Shown piece after piece: positions 1,448 to 44,118 of a stretch of DNA of 64,000 nucleotides. The notes under the pieces are model-generated. The model made no database searches. It was not told the origin of the DNA and saw only the letters and a list, made by a program, of their open reading frames with translations. Numbering within the stretch: the stretch's first letter is position 1; each line of letters opens with the position of its first letter. Position numbers and translations under genes: made by a program. The stretch is from a phage. The DNA is taken from sequence record PZ445526.1. One strand, 5' to 3'.

Positions 1448-1727
1448 ATTGAATCACCTTCAGTTGACGTTTTAACTCTTTTATCATTTCTTCGTTCATC
1501 GCAATATAAAGATCGCGTAAAGCAGGTTTTAGCATTCCATTTACCGGAGAACTAAATGGGCATACATAATCTTTTCCTACGAGCTTTTTAGTGAATTCCA
1601 TATTACAGAACTGAAATGCCGGTTCATTGGCATAAATTCCCCAATTAGTTGACATCATTTTATTGGCATATTCTAGTGCCTGGATTTGATTCATAATTCC
1701 ATCAATTTGAAACTTTTTAATATTCAT
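1431..1727 (-). CDS. hypothetical protein (98 aa)
   Basis: ORF track, ATG start, tightly packed in asiA-motA interval. Confidence 0.5.
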   Translation of the reverse strand: MNIKKFQIDGIMNQIQALEYANKMMSTNWGIYANEPAFQFCNMEFTKKLVGKDYVCPFSSPVNGMLKPALRDLYIAMNEEMIKELKRQLKVIQFGQGN

Positions 1728-2188
1728 TAGTAAAGGTCCTCAGAGTAAAGTTCTTTTTCACTACCACCACGTTCAATACGTACTTGTCCAGCGTAAGTTG
1801 CAATAATCATTGCTTCTTCGCGAGTCCAATAATTACTATATTGGTCAATAAATCCTTGGTCATCATCACAAACTTGCTGAGTAACTAATTGAGGTTTAAC
1901 TACATCTAAAACTTCTGCCATATCTTTAGAATAATGACGAGCACCTGGAATAATAAGAGTTCGTCCATCTTTTAATTTAAAACGATTAGCTGCACAGACA
2001 ATTCGTCGTTGATACTTTTGGTTTTCATCCCAGTATGCAGGCTGCCAACAGATTTCAGGAACTTCTTTCAGAATATCTTCTTCTGCGCATTTATAACCGT
2101 GTGCTTTAAATTTTTGAACAAGACTTTCTGGAGTCTCACGAGATAAAGGAACATTCAGCATTTTTAAACGATTAATAAATGGATTCAT
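1727..2188 (-). CDS. hypothetical protein (153 aa)
   Basis: ORF track, ATG start, stop/start abutting neighbours. Confidence 0.55.
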
Positions 2189-2514
2189 TTAAACCATCCT
2201 TTAATACGCTGCCACAAAGTTTTCTGTTGAGCTTTGTTAACACCAATTGAACGAATAACCGGTTGAGATTCCTGGAATTCTTTATAATCGGCAAGGTAAA
2301 TTTCGTAAGCTGCATCTGTAAAGGAACTTATCGCTGCCATGAAATTATTGCGAATACCTACTGGAGCATCTTTACTTTCACGAATAATCATGTATTTACC
2401 AGTCTTAATCTTTACAATAGTTCCAAGATAAGCTCCATGGTACCAAATATCCCAACCCTCTTGAGTAGGTTCTGCACAACGACGAAGTTCATTGACAATT
2501 TCTAACTTGTTCAT
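2185..2514 (-). CDS. hypothetical protein (109 aa)
   Basis: ORF track, ATG start, 4-nt overlap with downstream ORF. Confidence 0.55.
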
Positions 2515-2524
2515 TATTTATTCC

Positions 2525-3160
2525 TCATAGTTCAGATGCTACAGTGATTACAGCTTCAATGTTTTCTACTGAGCGTTTAATGTCAAGATACACATTACCG
2601 TTTTTAGCGATTTTACATGACATTCCGATGTCAGTAAATTTCTGAATATGATGTTCCATCATTTTGTATCCAAAAATTCGCATATTTCCATTGTTGTTAA
2701 TTTCAAAATTACGAATTCCGTGAGTGCGTTTTTCTAAAATAGCGAGATAGTTACTGCGATAAGTTTCAACCTTTTTAAGAACAAATCCATTTTCATCTAA
2801 AAGTTTTAACATGAAGTCTTTATCTTCTTCCATATCAGAAGTAATCTCACGAGCTTTACGAGTTGCTCGTTTTTTCAGCAGTTCCGGAGCATTTTCTTGT
2901 GCGTATAAAGTTGCTGCATTTGAAATAATATCCTGAGCTTCACCAGTAATGATTAATCCATCACCAGATTTCTCCACCAGGCCTTTTTTAATCAATACCC
3001 CAATATTACTATTAACTACTGCGTTACCTAAATCTGGATGCACCTCACGAACTTCTGCAGCTGTAATGAAATCTTTCTTAGCAATGGTAATTAAAATCGC
3101 AGCAGTTTTTTCATTCAGAACATCGTTAGAAGCTTTGATGATGTAAGTTACTTTAGACAT
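2525..3160 (-). CDS. motA: middle-transcription activator MotA
   Basis: 211 aa, MSKVTYIIKASNDVLNEKTAAILITIAKKDF...; matches remembered T4 MotA length and sequence; early promoter 3202-3231 upstream. Confidence 0.9.
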   Translation of the reverse strand: MSKVTYIIKASNDVLNEKTAAILITIAKKDFITAAEVREVHPDLGNAVVNSNIGVLIKKGLVEKSGDGLIITGEAQDIISNAATLYAQENAPELLKKRATRKAREITSDMEEDKDFMLKLLDENGFVLKKVETYRSNYLAILEKRTHGIRNFEINNNGNMRIFGYKMMEHHIQKFTDIGMSCKIAKNGNVYLDIKRSVENIEAVITVASEL

Positions 3161-3201
3161 TTTCTAATCTCCGTAATTCTGTATCAGTAGTTGATAGTTG
3201 T

Positions 3202-3231
3202 ATAGTACCATAGAATGCTTTGGTTGTAAAC
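3202..3231 (-). promoter_or_regulatory. early promoter for motA
   Basis: minus strand GTTTAC-N18-TACTAT with TGG extension; conserved leader. Confidence 0.6.
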
Positions 3232-3251
3232 AGTTTTGTGAAAAAATTTTT

Positions 3252-3282
3252 GAAATAAAAAAGGGAGAGCCGAGGCTCTCCC
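3252..3282 (-). terminator. rho-independent terminator
   Basis: GGGAGAGC-CUCG-GCUCUCCC followed by UUUUUUAUUU. Confidence 0.6.
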
Positions 3283-3287
3283 TAAAA

Positions 3288-3437
3288 TTACTGCATGACT
3301 GTGATAACTGTCATGATAACACGTTGAATTCCGAACGCAAGAAGACCTCCTGCTACGGCTGGAACAACACCTAAACCCGCCAGTAAAATGCTACCGGATA
3401 CTAATGCAGCGCTTGTAATACCTATGAATGGACTCAT
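3288..3437 (-). CDS. 49-aa hydrophobic membrane peptide (not in ORF track)
   Basis: ATG overlaps gene 52 stop (ATGA); MSPFIGITSAALVSGSILLAGLGVVPAVAGGLLAFGIQRVIMTVITVMQ; followed at once by terminator hairpin. Confidence 0.4.
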   Translation of the reverse strand: MSPFIGITSAALVSGSILLAGLGVVPAVAGGLLAFGIQRVIMTVITVMQ

Positions 3438-4762
3438 TTGATTTCCTCTAAATCTTTGGTGTATTCTGTAACTACATCAGTAGTTTTCCAATATTCGTTT
3501 TCTTCTTTTTTAGCTTTAGCTTCTTCGGCAAGTTTCTTTGCTTCATCAGAAGTCATGTGAAAAATATTCATTCCAACTAGTTTATCAACATAAGAAGAAT
3601 ACATATCGATTTTCGAAAGTTCTTCGGTCAGTTCTTTACGAGTTTTACCCTGCACAATGATTTCACCTGAAATTACTTTCTTAATGAAATGTGCCTTGGC
3701 AAAGGCTAAACGAAAAGCTGATTCAGTTTCTTTAATTTTGTTATCAATTCGTTTTTGAACATAAGTTTTACGAACTTCAACAAAGTCTTTAATTAAATCA
3801 ACTACGTTATCGTAAACTTGTAGTTTTCCTTTCTCATTAATAACCGTAATATTCTGAGAACGACGCTCAATCAACCCGAAGTCTTTCATAATTTTTGCAT
3901 GGCGTTCTTCTTCGTTATCGCTCAAAGAATATTCTTTGCGGAATTTAACTTTGAATCCAAAACCGTGCTCACCACAAGCATCATCCCATGTAATGAAGCC
4001 TTTATCTTCAAGTGGGTCTAAGATTTTACTCACATAAGTTTCACGATCATACTTATACGGAATCTCAGTGATATTCATTTGAGTTCGTGAAGTAAACTTG
4101 TACGTTCCACGAATTTCATATTGACCGTCAATCTCAACGACTTCACCACGAAATTCTGGGAATTCTACCTTCGGTTTAGTTACTTTCTTTCCTTGAAGAG
4201 CTTGCAGTACAGCTTTCTTGACAGAAGAAACACTATGAGGAAGAATGTAAGTTGCATAACCAGTTGCAATACCGGAAACGCCATTAAGAAGAACAGTAGG
4301 AATAATAGGCAAATAGAAAGCAGGCGGAATGTGTTCTTTATCTTGATGTACCGGAGCATATTCAGTATCTTTATATACGTTATAGAAATTTTTACTTACA
4401 CGAGCAAAAATATAACGACTTGCCGCTGCTTTTTGAACGGTACGAGAACCGAAGTTTCCTTGACCATCTAACAGAGGAAAGTTATTATTCCAAGTGTTAG
4501 CCATCAAAGCTCCCGCATCTTGCGCAGAGTTTTCGCCATGGTGATATCCAAGGTCCGCTACACCACCTGCGATAGAAGCTAGCTTATGAAACTTATCTTT
4601 ATTTCCTCGTGCCAAATCAAGAGCTCGAGCAATAACAAATCGTTGAACTGGCTTAAATCCATCAATCATATTTGGGATAGCACGATTTTCAACCGTGTAC
4701 ATAGCATAAGCCAATGCTTCATTATCAATGATACTTTTTAAATCGCGATTATTCAGTTGCAT
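3434..4762 (-). CDS. 52: DNA topoisomerase II medium subunit gp52 (GyrA-like)
   Basis: 442 aa, MQLNNRDLKSIIDNEALAYAMYTVENRAIPNMIDGFKPVQR...; matches remembered T4 gp52 length and N-terminus. Confidence 0.95.
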   Translation of the reverse strand: MQLNNRDLKSIIDNEALAYAMYTVENRAIPNMIDGFKPVQRFVIARALDLARGNKDKFHKLASIAGGVADLGYHHGENSAQDAGALMANTWNNNFPLLDGQGNFGSRTVQKAAASRYIFARVSKNFYNVYKDTEYAPVHQDKEHIPPAFYLPIIPTVLLNGVSGIATGYATYILPHSVSSVKKAVLQALQGKKVTKPKVEFPEFRGEVVEIDGQYEIRGTYKFTSRTQMNITEIPYKYDRETYVSKILDPLEDKGFITWDDACGEHGFGFKVKFRKEYSLSDNEEERHAKIMKDFGLIERRSQNITVINEKGKLQVYDNVVDLIKDFVEVRKTYVQKRIDNKIKETESAFRLAFAKAHFIKKVISGEIIVQGKTRKELTEELSKIDMYSSYVDKLVGMNIFHMTSDEAKKLAEEAKAKKEENEYWKTTDVVTEYTKDLEEIK

Positions 4763-24012: not shown

Positions 24013-24209
24013 TTTGAATGCTCTATAATTAATTTTAAAGCTTCTTCACGCACCAACTTGCCTGGTATATGCCCAGTTTTAATTGTGTAAACTTTGTGGA
24101 GCTGATTAGATAAGAGCTCACATACGAGCTCCTTGTCATAATCTTTAAATAGCTGGTCAATACGCTTCTTGTGGGCTTTCTTGAGCTGGCGTTTATTTAA
24201 ACGAGCCAT
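24009..24209 (-). CDS. hypothetical basic protein (66 aa)
   Basis: ORF track; Lys/Arg-rich N-terminus. Confidence 0.45.
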   Translation of the reverse strand: MARLNKRQLKKAHKKRIDQLFKDYDKELVCELLSNQLHKVYTIKTGHIPGKLVREEALKLIIEHSK

Positions 24210-24727
24210 TAATAGCCTCGATCTTGACGAGCGAAGTTTTCAGCATTTTTCAGATAATAAAGTTTAAAGATTTCCTCAGCTGACATTCCAAGAGCAATGA
24301 ATTTATTCATGAAAAAGTGAAATTGATCAATCAGTTCAAATTTAATTTCAAGTTGATCTTCAGGAGATAAATCTTGAATTTTCTTGGATTGCATTTCAGA
24401 ATAACGTTTTTTCCAAGGTTTCCATACAGCAGAAGCTTCTTTTTCACCATTACTCATACCACCAAGAGAAGTATATAGCTCGCGAGTTTCATCTGCGATA
24501 TAATCGTCTTGGTTTCGCAGCCAAGCAAGAACTTCTCCTGCAGTTTCAAGTGAATCAGGATGACGATTTGTTTCTGGTTTATCATTAGCCAAACGAATCT
24601 GTAAATGCCGCTGCATGTCAAGCATAACCTGTAGTGGGTCAATATTGTGCATAATATTCTCAGCATATGCACGATTTGCTTTATCAACACCTTCGATCAA
24701 ATGAGCACATTCATTAAAGTGAGCCAT
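24209..24727 (-). CDS. 56: dCTP pyrophosphatase gp56 (MazG-like)
   Basis: 172 aa from internal ATG (MAHFNECAHLIEG...) with SD AAAGGAAAAA; size and position match T4 gp56; track start extended 31 codons. Confidence 0.8.
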   Translation of the reverse strand: MAHFNECAHLIEGVDKANRAYAENIMHNIDPLQVMLDMQRHLQIRLANDKPETNRHPDSLETAGEVLAWLRNQDDYIADETRELYTSLGGMSNGEKEASAVWKPWKKRYSEMQSKKIQDLSPEDQLEIKFELIDQFHFFMNKFIALGMSAEEIFKLYYLKNAENFARQDRGY

Positions 24728-24798
24728 TATTTTTCCTTTCAATTCATGGGTTAGTAGATTAATTATACAATAAATATATAAAGCAATAAGGAGGACAT

Positions 24799-24999
24799 AT
24801 GGTACAAAAATTAATGGCACTTGTTAATGCCATCAAAGGTAATAAAAAGCGTATAGCTTTTACTATTTCTGCTATGGTAGGAATTTTACTCTGGAACTTT
24901 ATTTTATCACCTGTTGCAATTGCACATGGTATTAATATTCCAGTAGTTACTCTTGATACATTCGTAGATTTAGCATTTGCTTTAGTTGGGTTAATTTAA
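24799..24999 (+). CDS. 66-aa predicted membrane protein on the plus strand
   Basis: Strong SD TAAGGAGG 4 nt before ATG; two hydrophobic segments; convergent with and overlapping the primase stop. Confidence 0.5.
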   Translation: MVQKLMALVNAIKGNKKRIAFTISAMVGILLWNFILSPVAIAHGINIPVVTLDTFVDLAFALVGLI

Positions 25000-26024
25000 A
25001 TCTTAGCATATTTAGATAGCCGCATTTTAGCCATCAACCCCTGGGCAATATTATTTTTCATATATTCCATAATTTGTTCAGGGGTTGCACCTTCCTTTTT
25101 AATCATATCATTAACATCTTTTGATTTCCAGGGAGATTTATCCCAAAACATAACCCTTTCTCCTGCATCAACTAATTTAGTCATTCGCTTAATAGTGTCA
25201 GGATGACGAGGTTCATTATCTAAAACCCACACACGTCTATCTTTAAATGGAACAACTTCTAGGTCTAATTGACCACCCGTAATAGCTATACCATTTTCAA
25301 TAAAAAGTGAATCTATAGGTCCTTCTAGAACATATACATCACCATCTTTAACTCGTTCGACTCCATAGATTTTTGTTGCCTCAGGATAAGCTTTGATGGT
25401 TATATATTTTTGAGGAGCATCTTTCTTTAATGCACGTCCTTGAAAAGACTCAGCTTTTCCATTAGCATTATAAATTGGAATAACAAGACGAGGCTCAGGT
25501 ATTTCCTTTTTATATGTTCCGGGTGCTATACTATTAACTAATTTAGGCCATTCGGTTGTAAACCAAAGATATTTCCATTTATCCTTTGGAATACAACGAG
25601 CTTTTACATATTTTATAATTGGATGGTCTTCCGCCAGTTTATCTAATCTAACACATGACGGAAGAGATTTAATTATTTTCTTCTCAGGTTGTTTAGGAAG
25701 TTCTTTAGGTTTTTCTACTGGACGACTTTTACCTTTTTCTTTTCTTATTTCAAAGATATACTCACGATATAAATCAGGTTCAAACTCCTTTAAATATATT
25801 CCGATTGGTGCATGATAGTTACAGTTATAACAATGAATATTTCCTTCATTATTATCACCATAATACCATCCACGAGCTTTATTCTGGTCGGTTTTTGAAT
25901 CTCCACAAACAGGGCATCTAAACCGCAATTTAAAAGTTGAACTATTATTTACTTGTGTGAATTTAGGTAAATGAGCTAATGCACGGTATGCAAACTCATT
26001 ATCAATCCAAGGTATTGATGACAT
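24996..26024 (-). CDS. 61: DNA primase gp61
   Basis: 342 aa; N-terminal zinc ribbon (CPVCGDS ... CYNC); size matches T4 gp61. Confidence 0.9.
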   Translation of the reverse strand: MSSIPWIDNEFAYRALAHLPKFTQVNNSSTFKLRFRCPVCGDSKTDQNKARGWYYGDNNEGNIHCYNCNYHAPIGIYLKEFEPDLYREYIFEIRKEKGKSRPVEKPKELPKQPEKKIIKSLPSCVRLDKLAEDHPIIKYVKARCIPKDKWKYLWFTTEWPKLVNSIAPGTYKKEIPEPRLVIPIYNANGKAESFQGRALKKDAPQKYITIKAYPEATKIYGVERVKDGDVYVLEGPIDSLFIENGIAITGGQLDLEVVPFKDRRVWVLDNEPRHPDTIKRMTKLVDAGERVMFWDKSPWKSKDVNDMIKKEGATPEQIMEYMKNNIAQGLMAKMRLSKYAKI

Positions 26025-29110: not shown

Positions 29111-29473
29111 TTAAAAGAATTTAAATTTTTTCTTTGACCTTTTATTAAATGCATCTTGCAGTTGCATTGTAATACATTTTTCTACATGAGGAGCTAACTC
29201 AGCTTTTCTTTCTTGGTCAAGAACAGCAAAGTCCATTACAACCTTTCCATCAACCCAATCCAGTTTTGTTACATACACTATATGTGTAGAACCATCTTCT
29301 AGTTTAATGACAATCTCCTGGATAACATTTTCCATGGCAGATTTAATTATCTTAAGAGACTCATTAAAAAGACGTTCTTTTCTTTCTTCTTCCCCCTCCG
29401 AAGAGGGGGATTCATCGATAATTTCTAGATCTAAATCTAAATCATCTTTATTCATTAAATTCTTCCATATCAC
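29111..29473 (-). CDS. hypothetical acidic protein (120 aa), possible gp40 equivalent
   Basis: Position between 41 and uvsX; track start is GTG, internal ATG at 29455 possible. Confidence 0.45.
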   Translation of the reverse strand: MIWKNLMNKDDLDLDLEIIDESPSSEGEEERKERLFNESLKIIKSAMENVIQEIVIKLEDGSTHIVYVTKLDWVDGKVVMDFAVLDQERKAELAPHVEKCITMQLQDAFNKRSKKKFKFF

Positions 29474-30629
29474 TTAACTGTTCTAGGTCAGTTTCTAAAT
29501 CAGCTGCTGATTTACTTTTACTTTCTGGAGATTTAAATTTTTCAACCTTTGAGTTAATCAATTCATCAACTTCAGCTTCAACAATTTCATTACTATCAAT
29601 AGCACCTAACTGATAAGCACGTTTAATAGCATCTCGGAATGGTTGATGCTTAAATAAAGGACCCCAGAATGTAGTACAGTTGGTATCTTTTGCACGCCAA
29701 GATTTTTCTTCGCGAATCATCTCGCCGGTTTCTTCATCAAGAAATTCACGAGCATACCAGCCATTTTTAGGTTTTACTACAAATCCTAATTCTAGAGCCA
29801 TATCTAACAATCCAGAATAAGGATCGATACCACCGTCAAATTTAACATCAATAAAGAATTTACTTTTTTCTTTAACGGTACGAGATTTTTCTACATTTAG
29901 AACAAATTGATACCCCTGAAGATCAGAACCATCTTTAATCTGACGTTTACCAATAATGAATACAGTATCAGCCGAATACATTACGCCTGTACCACCTGTC
30001 ATCACGGTTTTACTAAACATTTCAATTGTTTCAATTGTATGGTTAACCGCAACGCATGGAATGTTTTTAATGCTAAAATAAGGAGTAACAATACGGAATA
30101 ATGACTTCAGTGATTTAGCACGAGTCATATCTGCCACAGATTTTTCATTCAAGGCATCTTCAGTTTCTTTCTTAGAAGCCATATTACCGATTGAGTCGAT
30201 GAATACAATAACCTTTTCACCACGCTCAATAGCTTCAAGCTGATTCACCATATCAATTTTCAGCTGTTCAACTGACTGAATTGGCGTATGAATTACTCGT
30301 TCCGGGTCAACTCCCATGGATCGCAAATAAGCTGGAGTAATACCAAATTCGCTATCATAGAATAGACAAACCGCGTCAGGATACTTGTTCAAATATGCCG
30401 CAACCATAGTCAAAGACATATTTGATTTAAAGTGTTTAGAAGGCCCTGCGAAAATAGTTAAACCAGACTGCATACCACCATCAATCGCACCGGAAATAGC
30501 GATATTAAGCATTGGAATTTTTGTACGGATTACATCCTTTTCATTAAAGAATTTAGATGTAGTCAGTTCAGCAGTCATTTTAGAAGTGGAAGCTTTAATC
30601 AAACGGGATTTTAAATCTGCAATAGACAT
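29448..30629 (-). CDS. uvsX: UvsX recombinase (RecA-like)
   Basis: 393 aa; MSIADLKSRLIKASTSKMTAELTTSKFFNEKDV..., Walker A GPSKHFKS; matches remembered T4 UvsX. Confidence 0.9.
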   Translation of the reverse strand: MSIADLKSRLIKASTSKMTAELTTSKFFNEKDVIRTKIPMLNIAISGAIDGGMQSGLTIFAGPSKHFKSNMSLTMVAAYLNKYPDAVCLFYDSEFGITPAYLRSMGVDPERVIHTPIQSVEQLKIDMVNQLEAIERGEKVIVFIDSIGNMASKKETEDALNEKSVADMTRAKSLKSLFRIVTPYFSIKNIPCVAVNHTIETIEMFSKTVMTGGTGVMYSADTVFIIGKRQIKDGSDLQGYQFVLNVEKSRTVKEKSKFFIDVKFDGGIDPYSGLLDMALELGFVVKPKNGWYAREFLDEETGEMIREEKSWRAKDTNCTTFWGPLFKHQPFRDAIKRAYQLGAIDSNEIVEAEVDELINSKVEKFKSPESKSKSAADLETDLEQLSDMEEFNE

Positions 30630-30682
30630 TCATTTTTTCCATAGGCATCATTATATTTTCCTCACTGGTTAAAGATAGAGTA

Positions 30683-30712
30683 ATTATAACACAATAAATT
30701 TAGGCATTAATC
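30683..30712 (-). promoter_or_regulatory. candidate promoter for uvsX
   Basis: extended -10 TGTTATAAT with imperfect MotA-like box ATGCCTAAA 11 nt upstream. Confidence 0.3.
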
Positions 30713-31549
30713 AACTGCTATTGGATGAATAGCATTAAACTTATGAAATGCTTCTGATTTTTCTTTACGCGAAACACACATGCGAAGAACCTTTAATGGC
30801 TCATCTTCTTCACCCAACGATTTTCGTTTTTCAATATTAGAAGTTTTCCAACGAGCTTGCTCTGGAAACTCTCTATTGATTTGCTCAAGCGCTCTATTAT
30901 GTTTAGAATTACTACGAATTGAACTGCACCCGCCAGGAGCTTGTGCTTTTCCAGATACAACCAGATATTTGAACAAGGCCAAATGCGGATAACCTTGATT
31001 AATTAAATTGAGAAATGCATACATATCTTCACATAAATCAATTTTTCCATACCCAATTTGTTCTGTCGTAAGTTTTCCAAGGTCATACCATGTATTCGTG
31101 AATCCATATGAATTTTCACGATAATTACCCCAAGATGAAGTAATTTTAAAAATAGGTAGACGAGCATGGCCATGATAATACCCGCAATCCATGGCATCCT
31201 CAACATATTGAATCAATTCATAGAACTGTTCACGAGTTAATTGATTAATTTTATCTACACATCGGCGATCATCTCTTTTTCGCATTGAACTCATACGAAT
31301 AGTAGTATCATCGTCAATCATCCAGATTCGTTGACCTGCATACATGTCAGTAATTGCTTTACGAGTACCGGCAATTCCATTTACATCATCAGGAATAGTT
31401 ACAATTTTAGCTCTAGACCCATAGGCATCATAATAAGCTTTTTCTTCGTGTTCACGCACTACAATATGCGGTTCATAATCAGTCGGAAACATATCAAGGG
31501 CAAAAACTGCCCCTACACGTTGATAGCTTGGAATTACGAATTGAATCAT
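30707..31549 (-). CDS. GT-A type (DXD) glycosyltransferase, probable DNA glucosyl-modification enzyme
   Basis: 280 aa from ATG overlapping gene 42 stop (ATGA); DXD-like motif WMIDDDT; occupies the slot where T4 has beta-gt. Confidence 0.5.
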   Translation of the reverse strand: MIQFVIPSYQRVGAVFALDMFPTDYEPHIVVREHEEKAYYDAYGSRAKIVTIPDDVNGIAGTRKAITDMYAGQRIWMIDDDTTIRMSSMRKRDDRRCVDKINQLTREQFYELIQYVEDAMDCGYYHGHARLPIFKITSSWGNYRENSYGFTNTWYDLGKLTTEQIGYGKIDLCEDMYAFLNLINQGYPHLALFKYLVVSGKAQAPGGCSSIRSNSKHNRALEQINREFPEQARWKTSNIEKRKSLGEEDEPLKVLRMCVSRKEKSEAFHKFNAIHPIAVD

Positions 31550-32286
31550 TTCCACTCACCGTTATAATCTTTTTTCACAATATGAGTTTCGCCAGTATTC
31601 CACCAGTGATCAACCAAGTAAAAATGACGAGAATATACATGAAGACTTCCAACATTCCATATAATAGAACCTGCTTTATACTGACGAGTTGAATCGCCTG
31701 CATTCAAATCAGATACTAATTTATCTAATACGTATTTTTGCCATGCATAATCATTACGGAATCCGAAGACCACGTCATTTGAGCGCATGCTTACTACTGC
31801 ATTGACTTTCTTATCACGAATCAGGTACTGTACTGTATTCGTACACATGAAATCTGACATACCATCTTTATTGTAGTCAAATTGCATGGATGGACGAGTA
31901 TAAATCATGATACCACGTCGAGAATCAGGATTTTGACCAAGTTCAGCTAAACACATATCATACTGGGCATAGTTATCTTCTGACCAAATAGCCCAACCAT
32001 AATTCGAGTTAATTTCGCCTTTAGAAGATGCTACCTGCTGCCAAATCTTTGGTGTTTCACCTGGAATATCTTTAACAAACAAGCTCTTAGATTTATACCA
32101 TTCAAGTTCGCGCTGAATGTATTCATCATTAAGAGCGCCAAAAATAAACGGTTCATCTGCTACAAATGATGCGCCAATAATTTCAATAGTTTTAACACCA
32201 GTTTTATCAACTACGAAATCTTTTTCTTTTAATGCAAGCCCCAAATGAAGACGGATTTCTTCAACTGTCATAGAGTCACTAATCAT
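31546..32286 (-). CDS. 42: dCMP hydroxymethylase gp42
   Basis: 246 aa, thymidylate-synthase-like; size and position match T4 gp42. Confidence 0.9.
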   Translation of the reverse strand: MISDSMTVEEIRLHLGLALKEKDFVVDKTGVKTIEIIGASFVADEPFIFGALNDEYIQRELEWYKSKSLFVKDIPGETPKIWQQVASSKGEINSNYGWAIWSEDNYAQYDMCLAELGQNPDSRRGIMIYTRPSMQFDYNKDGMSDFMCTNTVQYLIRDKKVNAVVSMRSNDVVFGFRNDYAWQKYVLDKLVSDLNAGDSTRQYKAGSIIWNVGSLHVYSRHFYLVDHWWNTGETHIVKKDYNGEWK

Positions 32287-32698: not shown

Positions 32699-33079
32699 TC
32701 ACTTAGTCAAATTTTTTACACATGAATTATAAGAATTCACTACATACTCCATCGGAGCATTTTTACCGGTACGCCACTGGTAATTATTAGCCCAATTTGC
32801 CCAAATTTCAGCGCAGTAGTTTTCAATTTTTTCTTCGCGTGTAATTACATCCGAATTACGATATGCTTGAGCAGATTCATCTGGACGAATAGCTTCGTCA
32901 AAATTCGCCTGCATTTGTTCTACTGTCTGTTTTGGAGCTTCTTTATAACACTTTACATTAGGATTATAAAACTTGCTTGAACAGTTTACAATTTTTCCTA
33001 CATCAGACTGATTTACTACCGGTCCTTGAGCTACACAACCAGTAAGACCTAATGCAATAACCAAAATAGCGATTTTCAT
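32699..33079 (-). CDS. putative lipoprotein (126 aa)
   Basis: Track ORF runs through promoter 33117-33146; ATG at 33079 gives MKIAILVIALGLTGC lipobox signal. Confidence 0.5.
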   Translation of the reverse strand: MKIAILVIALGLTGCVAQGPVVNQSDVGKIVNCSSKFYNPNVKCYKEAPKQTVEQMQANFDEAIRPDESAQAYRNSDVITREEKIENYCAEIWANWANNYQWRTGKNAPMEYVVNSYNSCVKNLTK

Positions 33080-33116
33080 TTCATTCTCCAAATCCGTATC
33101 AGTAGTTGATAGTTGT

Positions 33117-33146
33117 ATAGTACCATAGAAGAACAGGGATGTAAAC
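33117..33146 (-). promoter_or_regulatory. early promoter cassette
   Basis: GTTTAC-N18-TACTAT, TGG-extended; after gene 43 terminator. Confidence 0.6.
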
Positions 33147-33225
33147 AGTTTTGTGAAAAAAATTTTTAGGGAATCCAAAGGGTCCAGAATCATCTCTTTT
33201 TCATAAGTATAGATTTATATTACTT

Positions 33226-42900: not shown

Positions 42901-42916
42901 AAGGGCCGAAGCCCTT
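42901..42916 (-). other. UUCG hairpin overlapping the alpha-gt stop codon
   Basis: AAGGGC-UUCG-GCCCUU. Confidence 0.4.
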
Positions 42917-44118
42917 TATTTTGTAATAATGTCAAACTGTTCTTTAAAGCAGAAGCTTGAATCTTGGTGCTGATACAAAAATTCATATGCTTTTTCTCGC
43001 TCACGGTCATAAAGAGCTCGGTCAGATGACAGTTCTTTAATACGCTCGAGTGTTGATTCCATATCATTTTCATCAAACCAAATGATACCGCTATCATGCG
43101 AGGTCAAAGGAGTATTATCAACACGGAATTTTAAATTTTCGCCAGTAGATTTCCAAAATACCGGAATTGTTCCACATGCACCAAGCTCGAGATGAGTATA
43201 TTCTAAAGAACGTTGTAGATATTTTTTGTCCAACTTACTCAGCTGATAACCAAATCCGGATTTACTCATGCGTTCAAGCATTTCGCTATTTACATAACGG
43301 TCAAGAATTTGCGTTGGCAAATTAGGAGCAATTTTAATTTGGTCTACTTGATGAAGACGATAATACTCGTATGGAATTCCTTTTTCTTTAATAGGAATGA
43401 ACGCTGGAGAACGTTCCAGACCTTCCATAATAGTACTTAGTCCTGCAGGTTTAAGATGTTTTTCGTGAAAATCAAACATCTGGTAAAAACCTTTCCATGT
43501 AGTCGTACGACCAATCCAACGGTTGATATTCATGTTAATTTCAGAAACATCTTTCCAGTAGGTTGATCGAACCTTCGCAATATCCATAGGAGGCTGAAAG
43601 TTGTATACGGTCGGTGCTTCTTCAATATCATCAAACAGAGAAACTGTTTCTGGATACCATTCTTTCATCAAAACTTTATTAAAGTCACCATTATCAGAAT
43701 GGCTAAAAATAACATCAGCTCGACGAACAGTTTCTTCTAATCCCAAATTTCGACGCAAAGAAAGAGAAGAATGGTCATGTTGATAAACTACAACACGAAC
43801 CGAAGGTTTAATGTTATCAATAATTTTTTTATAGTTATTAATAGTGTCTTCTTCAACTGAAGTAGCAGGAACTGAATTGATAATTAGAATATCACAATCA
43901 TTTACCAGCTTAAGTGTTTTATCGTATTCTTTTGCCAATAAAACCGGAATTGAAAATGATTTATAATCATGTGCACAGTTACGAGTAAATGATTTATCTT
44001 TAGCATAAACCAAAGTTACTTCATGACCATTTTTAATAAACCAATCACGTTGCTCAAGAGAAAATTTAGTTACACCGCAACCTTCAAGACCTCGAGCCAT
44101 AAAAATACATACTTTCAT
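42916..44118 (-). CDS. agt: DNA alpha-glucosyltransferase
   Basis: 400 aa, MKVCIFMARGLEGCGVTKFSLEQRDWFIKNGHEVTLVYAKDKSF... matches remembered T4 alpha-gt. Confidence 0.9.
   Translation of the reverse strand: MKVCIFMARGLEGCGVTKFSLEQRDWFIKNGHEVTLVYAKDKSFTRNCAHDYKSFSIPVLLAKEYDKTLKLVNDCDILIINSVPATSVEEDTINNYKKIIDNIKPSVRVVVYQHDHSSLSLRRNLGLEETVRRADVIFSHSDNGDFNKVLMKEWYPETVSLFDDIEEAPTVYNFQPPMDIAKVRSTYWKDVSEINMNINRWIGRTTTWKGFYQMFDFHEKHLKPAGLSTIMEGLERSPAFIPIKEKGIPYEYYRLHQVDQIKIAPNLPTQILDRYVNSEMLERMSKSGFGYQLSKLDKKYLQRSLEYTHLELGACGTIPVFWKSTGENLKFRVDNTPLTSHDSGIIWFDENDMESTLERIKELSSDRALYDREREKAYEFLYQHQDSSFCFKEQFDIITK

Follow-up and report, generated by a model that had tools for sequence, protein, structure and literature searches.

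A phage gene between uvsX and gene 42 very probably encodes a T2/T6-type beta-glucosyl-HMC-alpha-glucosyltransferase

In the 64,000 nucleotides of phage DNA analysed here (sequence record PZ445526.1; hereafter the window), the gene at 30707..31549 very probably encodes a beta-glucosyl-HMC-alpha-glucosyltransferase of the T2/T6 type, that is, an enzyme of GT-A fold with a DXD motif that belongs to the TAGT (TET-associated glycosyltransferase) family, PF20691. We refer to this gene as ba-gt. An earlier note on this DNA had placed a 280-aa protein between uvsX and gene 42 and had remarked on its WMIDDDT motif and on an ATGA overlap with gene 42. All three hold: the open reading frame is present as described, and we add that it lies on the minus strand; the motif makes up residues 76-82 of the 280-aa protein; and the overlap can be read directly from the sequence (Table 1).

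Table 1. Coordinates of ba-gt, its sequence elements and the associated genes in the window.
Feature	Coordinates	Strand	Size, position or basis
ba-gt / ggt / TAGT CDS	30707..31549	minus	280 aa + stop; ORF listing, PHROG 842, PF20691, T2 identity
gene 42, dCMP hydroxymethylase	31546..32286	minus	246 aa; ORF, annotation of matched records and of T4
uvsX	29448..30629	minus	77 nt downstream of ba-gt
ATGA overlap, gene 42 stop (TGA) / ba-gt start (ATG)	31546..31549	minus	sequence
WMIDDDT codons, residues 76-82	31304..31324	minus	
D79-D80-D81, putative DXD-type metal- and nucleotide-sugar-binding motif	31307..31315	minus	
alpha-gt, DNA alpha-glucosyltransferase	42916..44118	minus	400 aa; PF11440

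The listing of open reading frames gave ba-gt as a longer frame (30707..31555, 282 aa) that opens with a GTG upstream of the ATG. Starting from the ATG at 31549 yields the 280-aa product MIQFVIPSYQR...AIHPIAVD, and this ATG is the annotated start in all homologous records compared (T2, RB18, Solly, NR1, EL and Geo). The gene 42/ba-gt junction has the minus-strand sequence GGTGAGTGGAAATGATTCAA, so that the TGA of gene 42 and the ATG of ba-gt overlap as ATGA. A Shine-Dalgarno-like element, GGTGAG, stands shortly 5' of the ATG, and the annotation of T2, RB18, Solly, NR1, EL and Geo shows the identical 4-nt overlap of the two genes.

The assignment to the T2/T6 type is carried by identity over the whole protein. 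The ba-gt product aligned without gaps with the beta-glucosyl-HMC-alpha-glucosyltransferase of phage T2, with 275 of 280 residues identical (98%), and shared 273 of 280 residues with the reading frame in T6 record MH550421. It matched PHROG 842, 'beta-glucosyl-HMC-alpha-glucosyltransferase', over residues 1-275 (E 3.8e-89), as well as PF20691 over profile positions 3-205 of 205 with 36.9 bits, which exceeds the gathering score of 27.5; NCBIfam had no matching model for either ba-gt or alpha-gt. Megablast found the gene in 479 phage records, mostly Tequatrovirus phages of Escherichia, Shigella and Yersinia, at 90-99% DNA identity. As it is long, conserved and full length in 475 of these records, ba-gt is no chance reading frame. 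With tblastn, about 200 further records appeared at 60-80% identity, from Klebsiella and Enterobacter phages and CC31, together with a Serratia phage homologue at 48% identity. The order uvsX - ba-gt - 42 is the same in T2, T6, RB18, Solly, NR1, EL and Geo, and RB18 is the closest relative of the surrounding 24.5 kb (97.7%).

No solved structure of any member of the ba-gt family was found by single-sequence or profile search. The fold is given here as a predicted model, based on an alignment of 10 homologous sequences with the window protein as reference. Searched against the PDB, the profile of this alignment returned a single match below threshold, the GT2 glucosyltransferase AvpGT (9jma, E 0.23), in which FVIPSYQR is paired with VIIPTYNR and WMLDDDT with FLDDDD. 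The AlphaFold2 model built from the same alignment had a mean pLDDT of 71.6 and a pTM of 0.73; the N-terminal, nucleotide-binding half was confident (82-93), and three C-terminal loops (129-140, 197-211 and 237-249) fell below a pLDDT of 50, so that details of the acceptor site in this model are unreliable. In a Foldseek search of viral models, the ba-gt of Klebsiella phage PKO111 came first (E 9e-32), followed by TAGT-domain proteins. A published, AF3-based assignment places the T6 TAGT within the GT-A superfamily and makes it the sister group of GT2 (PMC13216743), and the predicted window structure, with its GT-A fold and DXD motif, agrees with this assignment. The Pfam GT2 profile Glycos_transf_2 gave no match to ba-gt at E <= 1. 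Cellular inverting GT-A enzymes of the GT2 family (AvpGT 9jma, TarP 6h1j, BcsA 4p00 and SpsA 1h7l) share only 7-16% identity with ba-gt, so that the likeness, judged from the model, would be one of fold only; unlike theirs, the acceptor of ba-gt is a sugar on duplex DNA.

The alignment also points to candidate active-site residues. Its invariant positions, 40 in number and all of them kept in the window protein, include D79, D80, D81, D93, D121, D175 and E250. By analogy with other GT-A enzymes, D79 and D81 would bind a divalent metal and the diphosphate of UDP. The nearly invariant E174 and the invariant D175 (LCEDMYAF) stand at the start of a helix (174-185) in the model, and this pair is a candidate for the catalytic base. 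A donor in alpha linkage that gives a product in beta linkage would imply an inverting mechanism, as in other inverting GT-A enzymes.

In T4, the slot downstream of gene 42 is filled by beta-gt and then by segA. The note had described T4 beta-gt as a protein of about 351 aa, larger than and unlike the window protein, and had named a full-length alignment between the two as evidence against its reading. The length of 351 aa is confirmed, and BLASTP found no similarity between ba-gt and T4 beta-gt (best E 3.4 over 8 residues), let alone a full-length alignment. T4 beta-gt belongs to PF09198 and has a GT-B fold (PMC13216743), whereas the 280-aa window protein is of the GT-A type and did not match PF09198 at E <= 1. 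We thus rejected ba-gt as a T4-type beta-gt. Across the whole 64-kb window, tblastn detected neither a T4-type beta-gt (best E 1.6) nor segA, which lies between beta-gt and uvsX in T4 (1571-3456 of the compared T4 stretch, corresponding to 30630-31549 of the window) and is missing from T2, T6 and RB18 as well. The two genes also differ in their junction with gene 42, from which T4 beta-gt is separated by 23 nt and which ba-gt overlaps, and presumably in their acceptor, which is hmC itself for T4 beta-gt and would be alpha-glucosyl-hmC for ba-gt. Common to both are the neighbourhood, UDP-glucose as donor, the beta bond in the product and a role in completing the glucosylation of the DNA.

The T4-like alpha-gt that the note had reported was recovered as a 400-aa minus-strand gene (Table 1). 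Its product matched PF11440 (AGT) over the full profile (E 9.7e-237) and was identical to the RB18 enzyme at 397 of 400 residues; the alpha-gt proteins of Solly, NR1, EL and Geo share only 366-367 of 400 residues with it. Together, gp42 for hmC synthesis and alpha-gt for alpha-glucosylation make the supply of acceptor complete within the window. This suggests the following pathway. The product of gene 42, coupled directly upstream of ba-gt, would make hydroxymethyl-dCMP, so that the phage DNA would have hmC in place of C. Alpha-gt would then move glucose from host UDP-glucose to hmC in alpha linkage, and ba-gt would add a second glucose from UDP-glucose to the 6-OH of the first, in an inverting beta-1,6 transfer that would give gentiobiosyl-hmC. 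The last step is ascribed to the window enzyme from the literature on near-identical enzymes. DNA made in this way would be a mixture of naked hmC (~25-33%), alpha-glucosyl-hmC and gentiobiosyl-hmC, and the phage would be without beta-glucosyl-hmC.

Published chemistry on relatives is consistent with such a pathway. The gentiobiosyl-hmC of T2 and T6 has been attributed to ba-gt, which adds the second glucose beta-1,6 to alpha-glucosyl-hmC (PMC6024577; PMC13216743). It makes up ~5% of hmC in T2 and ~70-72% in T6, with ~25% of hmC left naked (PMC6024577; PMC13216743; bioRxiv 10.64898/2026.02.25.707755), and in T6 with g-gt deleted, DNA with ~75% alpha-glucosyl-5hmC replaces gentiobiosyl-5hmC (bioRxiv 10.64898/2026.02.25.707755). 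Tequatrovirus phages of the Durham collection carry alpha-GT and TAGT, with TAGT syntenic with T4 beta-GT. In the DNA of Solly, NR1, EL and Geo, gentiobiosyl-hmC (alpha-5-gentiobiosyl-mdC) was measured, in Solly by HPLC/MS, and no beta-glucosyl-hmC. The ba-gt synteny of these four phages is identical to that of the window, and their enzymes share 277 (Solly), 276 (NR1) and 274 (EL and Geo) of 280 residues with the window protein. The T2/T6-like glucosylation pattern proposed in the note is thus to be expected, both from the identity to the T2 enzyme and from these 274-277 shared residues with the enzymes of four phages that contain gentiobiosyl-hmC.

Other roles for the gene fit less well. As ba-gt occupies the beta-gt slot, it might be a primary transferase that acts directly on hmC, or one that transfers a sugar other than glucose, and so replace T4 beta-gt functionally; distant TAGT homologues stand alone in some phages that encode neither alpha-GT nor beta-GT (PMC13216743), so that other acceptors may occur within the family. 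We consider such a role extremely unlikely for the window gene, as an enzyme 98-99% identical to those of T2 and Solly is very unlikely to have changed its specificity, phages with near-identical enzymes are without beta-glucosyl-hmC, and T6 deleted for g-gt is left with alpha-glucosyl-hmC (bioRxiv 10.64898/2026.02.25.707755). That ba-gt is an inactive remnant is hardly credible at all. Both public T6 records show apparent lesions in the gene, so that its loss may be tolerated in laboratory stocks, but in the window the reading frame is intact and full length, all 40 invariant residues are kept and so is the ATGA coupling to gene 42.

The extent to which a beta-glucosyl-HMC-alpha-glucosyltransferase of the T2/T6 type would modify the window DNA is a separate matter. 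Presence of the gene is no predictor of extent, because T2 and T6 differ ~14-fold with enzymes that are ~97% identical. The window enzyme could therefore contribute only marginally, as in T2, and leave the DNA essentially alpha-monoglucosylated, in which case its restriction sensitivity would be like that of a T4 beta-gt mutant. The T2 gene is intact and its product 98% identical to that of the window, yet T2 has only ~5% gentiobiosyl-hmC, and the 1:2:2 pattern of EL, Geo and BGP is intermediate. We regard a marginal contribution as possible but doubtful. Among the proteins compared, the window ba-gt is nearest to that of Solly, and the Solly and NR1 group has about two-thirds gentiobiosyl-hmC. 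A dam-like gene between genes 56 and 61 is the mark of the EL/Geo group. The window, like the Solly and NR1 group, has no such gene, which may speak slightly against a marginal role, as may R11 and P251, positions at which T2 departs from the Solly/NR1 group (H11, S251). From the closeness of the ba-gt protein to those of Solly and NR1 and from the missing dam-like gene we lean weakly towards a T6-like rather than a T2-like extent of diglucosylation. The variable positions of ba-gt form a mosaic among the homologues compared.

A dam methyltransferase gene was absent between genes 56 and 61 of the window; T4, EL and Geo carry dam at this place, and EL and Geo have an additional gene of 186 aa. 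The window stretch from gene 56 (dCTPase) to gene 61 (primase), 24209-25000, contains only a 66-aa open reading frame on the plus strand (24799..24999), as it does in RB18.

T2 and the window have in common the 280-aa length, the slot between gene 42 and uvsX, the ATGA coupling, the alpha-gt partner and the DDD motif, and their ba-gt proteins differ by five substitutions, written here with the residue of the window in front: R11H, F16S, V50I, I101V and P251S. F16 is found in the window protein, whereas all 7 homologues compared have serine at this position; its effect is probably neutral. It is very unlikely that F16, V50 and I101 act together with the alpha-gt allele to give an extent of diglucosylation that differs from those of both T2 and T6. 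If they did, a comparison of natural ba-gt alleles could help to explain the puzzle of ~5% gentiobiosyl-hmC in T2 and ~72% in T6.

The window gene is a textbook T2/T6 gene in the majority state of its genus, and its combination with alpha-gt is not unusual. Winkler and Ruger reportedly described the cloning of the T2 and T6 genes in 1993. Gene, position, fold class and product have all been published, and as a discovery nothing here is new. Pairing of alpha-GT or beta-GT with TAGT is the usual arrangement, and the T4 pair of alpha and beta enzymes is exceptional, occurring in 6 of 753 genomes (PMC13216743). Two papers of 2026 have reported the GT-A fold, the shared synteny of TAGT and T4 beta-gt, and the pairing of alpha-GT with TAGT as the common state in Tequatrovirus (PMC13216743; bioRxiv 10.64898/2026.02.25.707755).

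Whether a host defence can act against a T-even phage depends on the kind of sugar that its hmC carries. Such defences include McrBC, GmrSD/BrxU, two glycosylases, Brig1 and Brig3, and BapA, a deglucosylating protein that releases no glucose from gentiobiosyl-hmC (bioRxiv 10.64898/2026.02.25.707755). Placing the window phage in the alpha-gt + ba-gt (T2/T6) type therefore helps to predict host range and to handle its DNA. The expected mixture of sugars would alter the set of type IV restriction enzymes, DNA glycosylases and deglucosylating defence proteins to which that DNA is exposed.

Several further features were seen in and around the gene. A GC-rich stem-loop (AGGGGCA-GUUUU-UGCCCUU; 31495..31515, minus strand) lies 35-55 nt into the ba-gt reading frame. 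It was terminator-like in our scan and is annotated as 'terminator' in the fPS-65 record; no run of T follows it. The surrounding 111-nt region had a folding z of -2.2. T2 and T6 have retained the stem, and the F16 codon (TTT; TCT in the others) falls within the loop. Around ba-gt, the scan for sigma-70 promoters and terminators found no excess of sites over shuffled sequence (17 promoter-like sites against 16.0 +/- 4.1 expected), and we therefore draw no regulatory conclusion from it. In T4, the middle promoters that depend on MotA have TGCTTA as their MotA box, near -30. In the 77-nt spacer before uvsX, the minus strand of the window (30683..30706) continues from the ba-gt stop codon with TGCCTA, 12 nt and TATAAT, identical in T2 and T6, which we take to resemble a MotA-dependent middle promoter placed for uvsX; as it has no -35 hexamer, the sigma-70 scan missed it.

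The public records compared showed peculiarities of their own. In contrast to the intact genes of the window and T2, both T6 records have an altered ba-gt. That of MH550421.1 (4138-4980 of the compared stretch) has a TAG (amber) at codon 10, and the annotated CDS starts as late as Met20 (261 aa), with no overlap with gene 42; that of AP018814.1 (4135-4974 of the compared stretch) has an in-frame deletion of 3 nt that turns WMIDDDT into WMIDDT and leaves 279 aa. The two lesions are apparently independent and, as T6 is the reference for ~72% gentiobiosyl-hmC, may be laboratory-stock mutations or sequencing errors. At 32699-33193 on the minus strand, the listing of open reading frames has a 164-aa frame, within which the imm.1 homologues (126 aa) begin at an internal Met. 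The Imm.1 homologue carries a lipoprotein-type signal, MKIAILVIALGLTGC, and from the internal Met the protein reads MKIAILVIALGLTGCVAQ..., in which a lipobox (LTGC) completes a signal peptide of the lipoprotein type. For imm.1 of T4 and RB18, the RefSeq name 'iduronate sulfatase' seems to be an artefact of annotation. Gene 42 itself measures 741 nt in the window, T2 and T4, whereas in the RB18 record NC_054906.1 (22903-23439 of the compared stretch) it is annotated with 537 nt (178 aa) and a gap of ~360 nt before imm, which points either to a frameshift in the record or to an annotation that is cut short.
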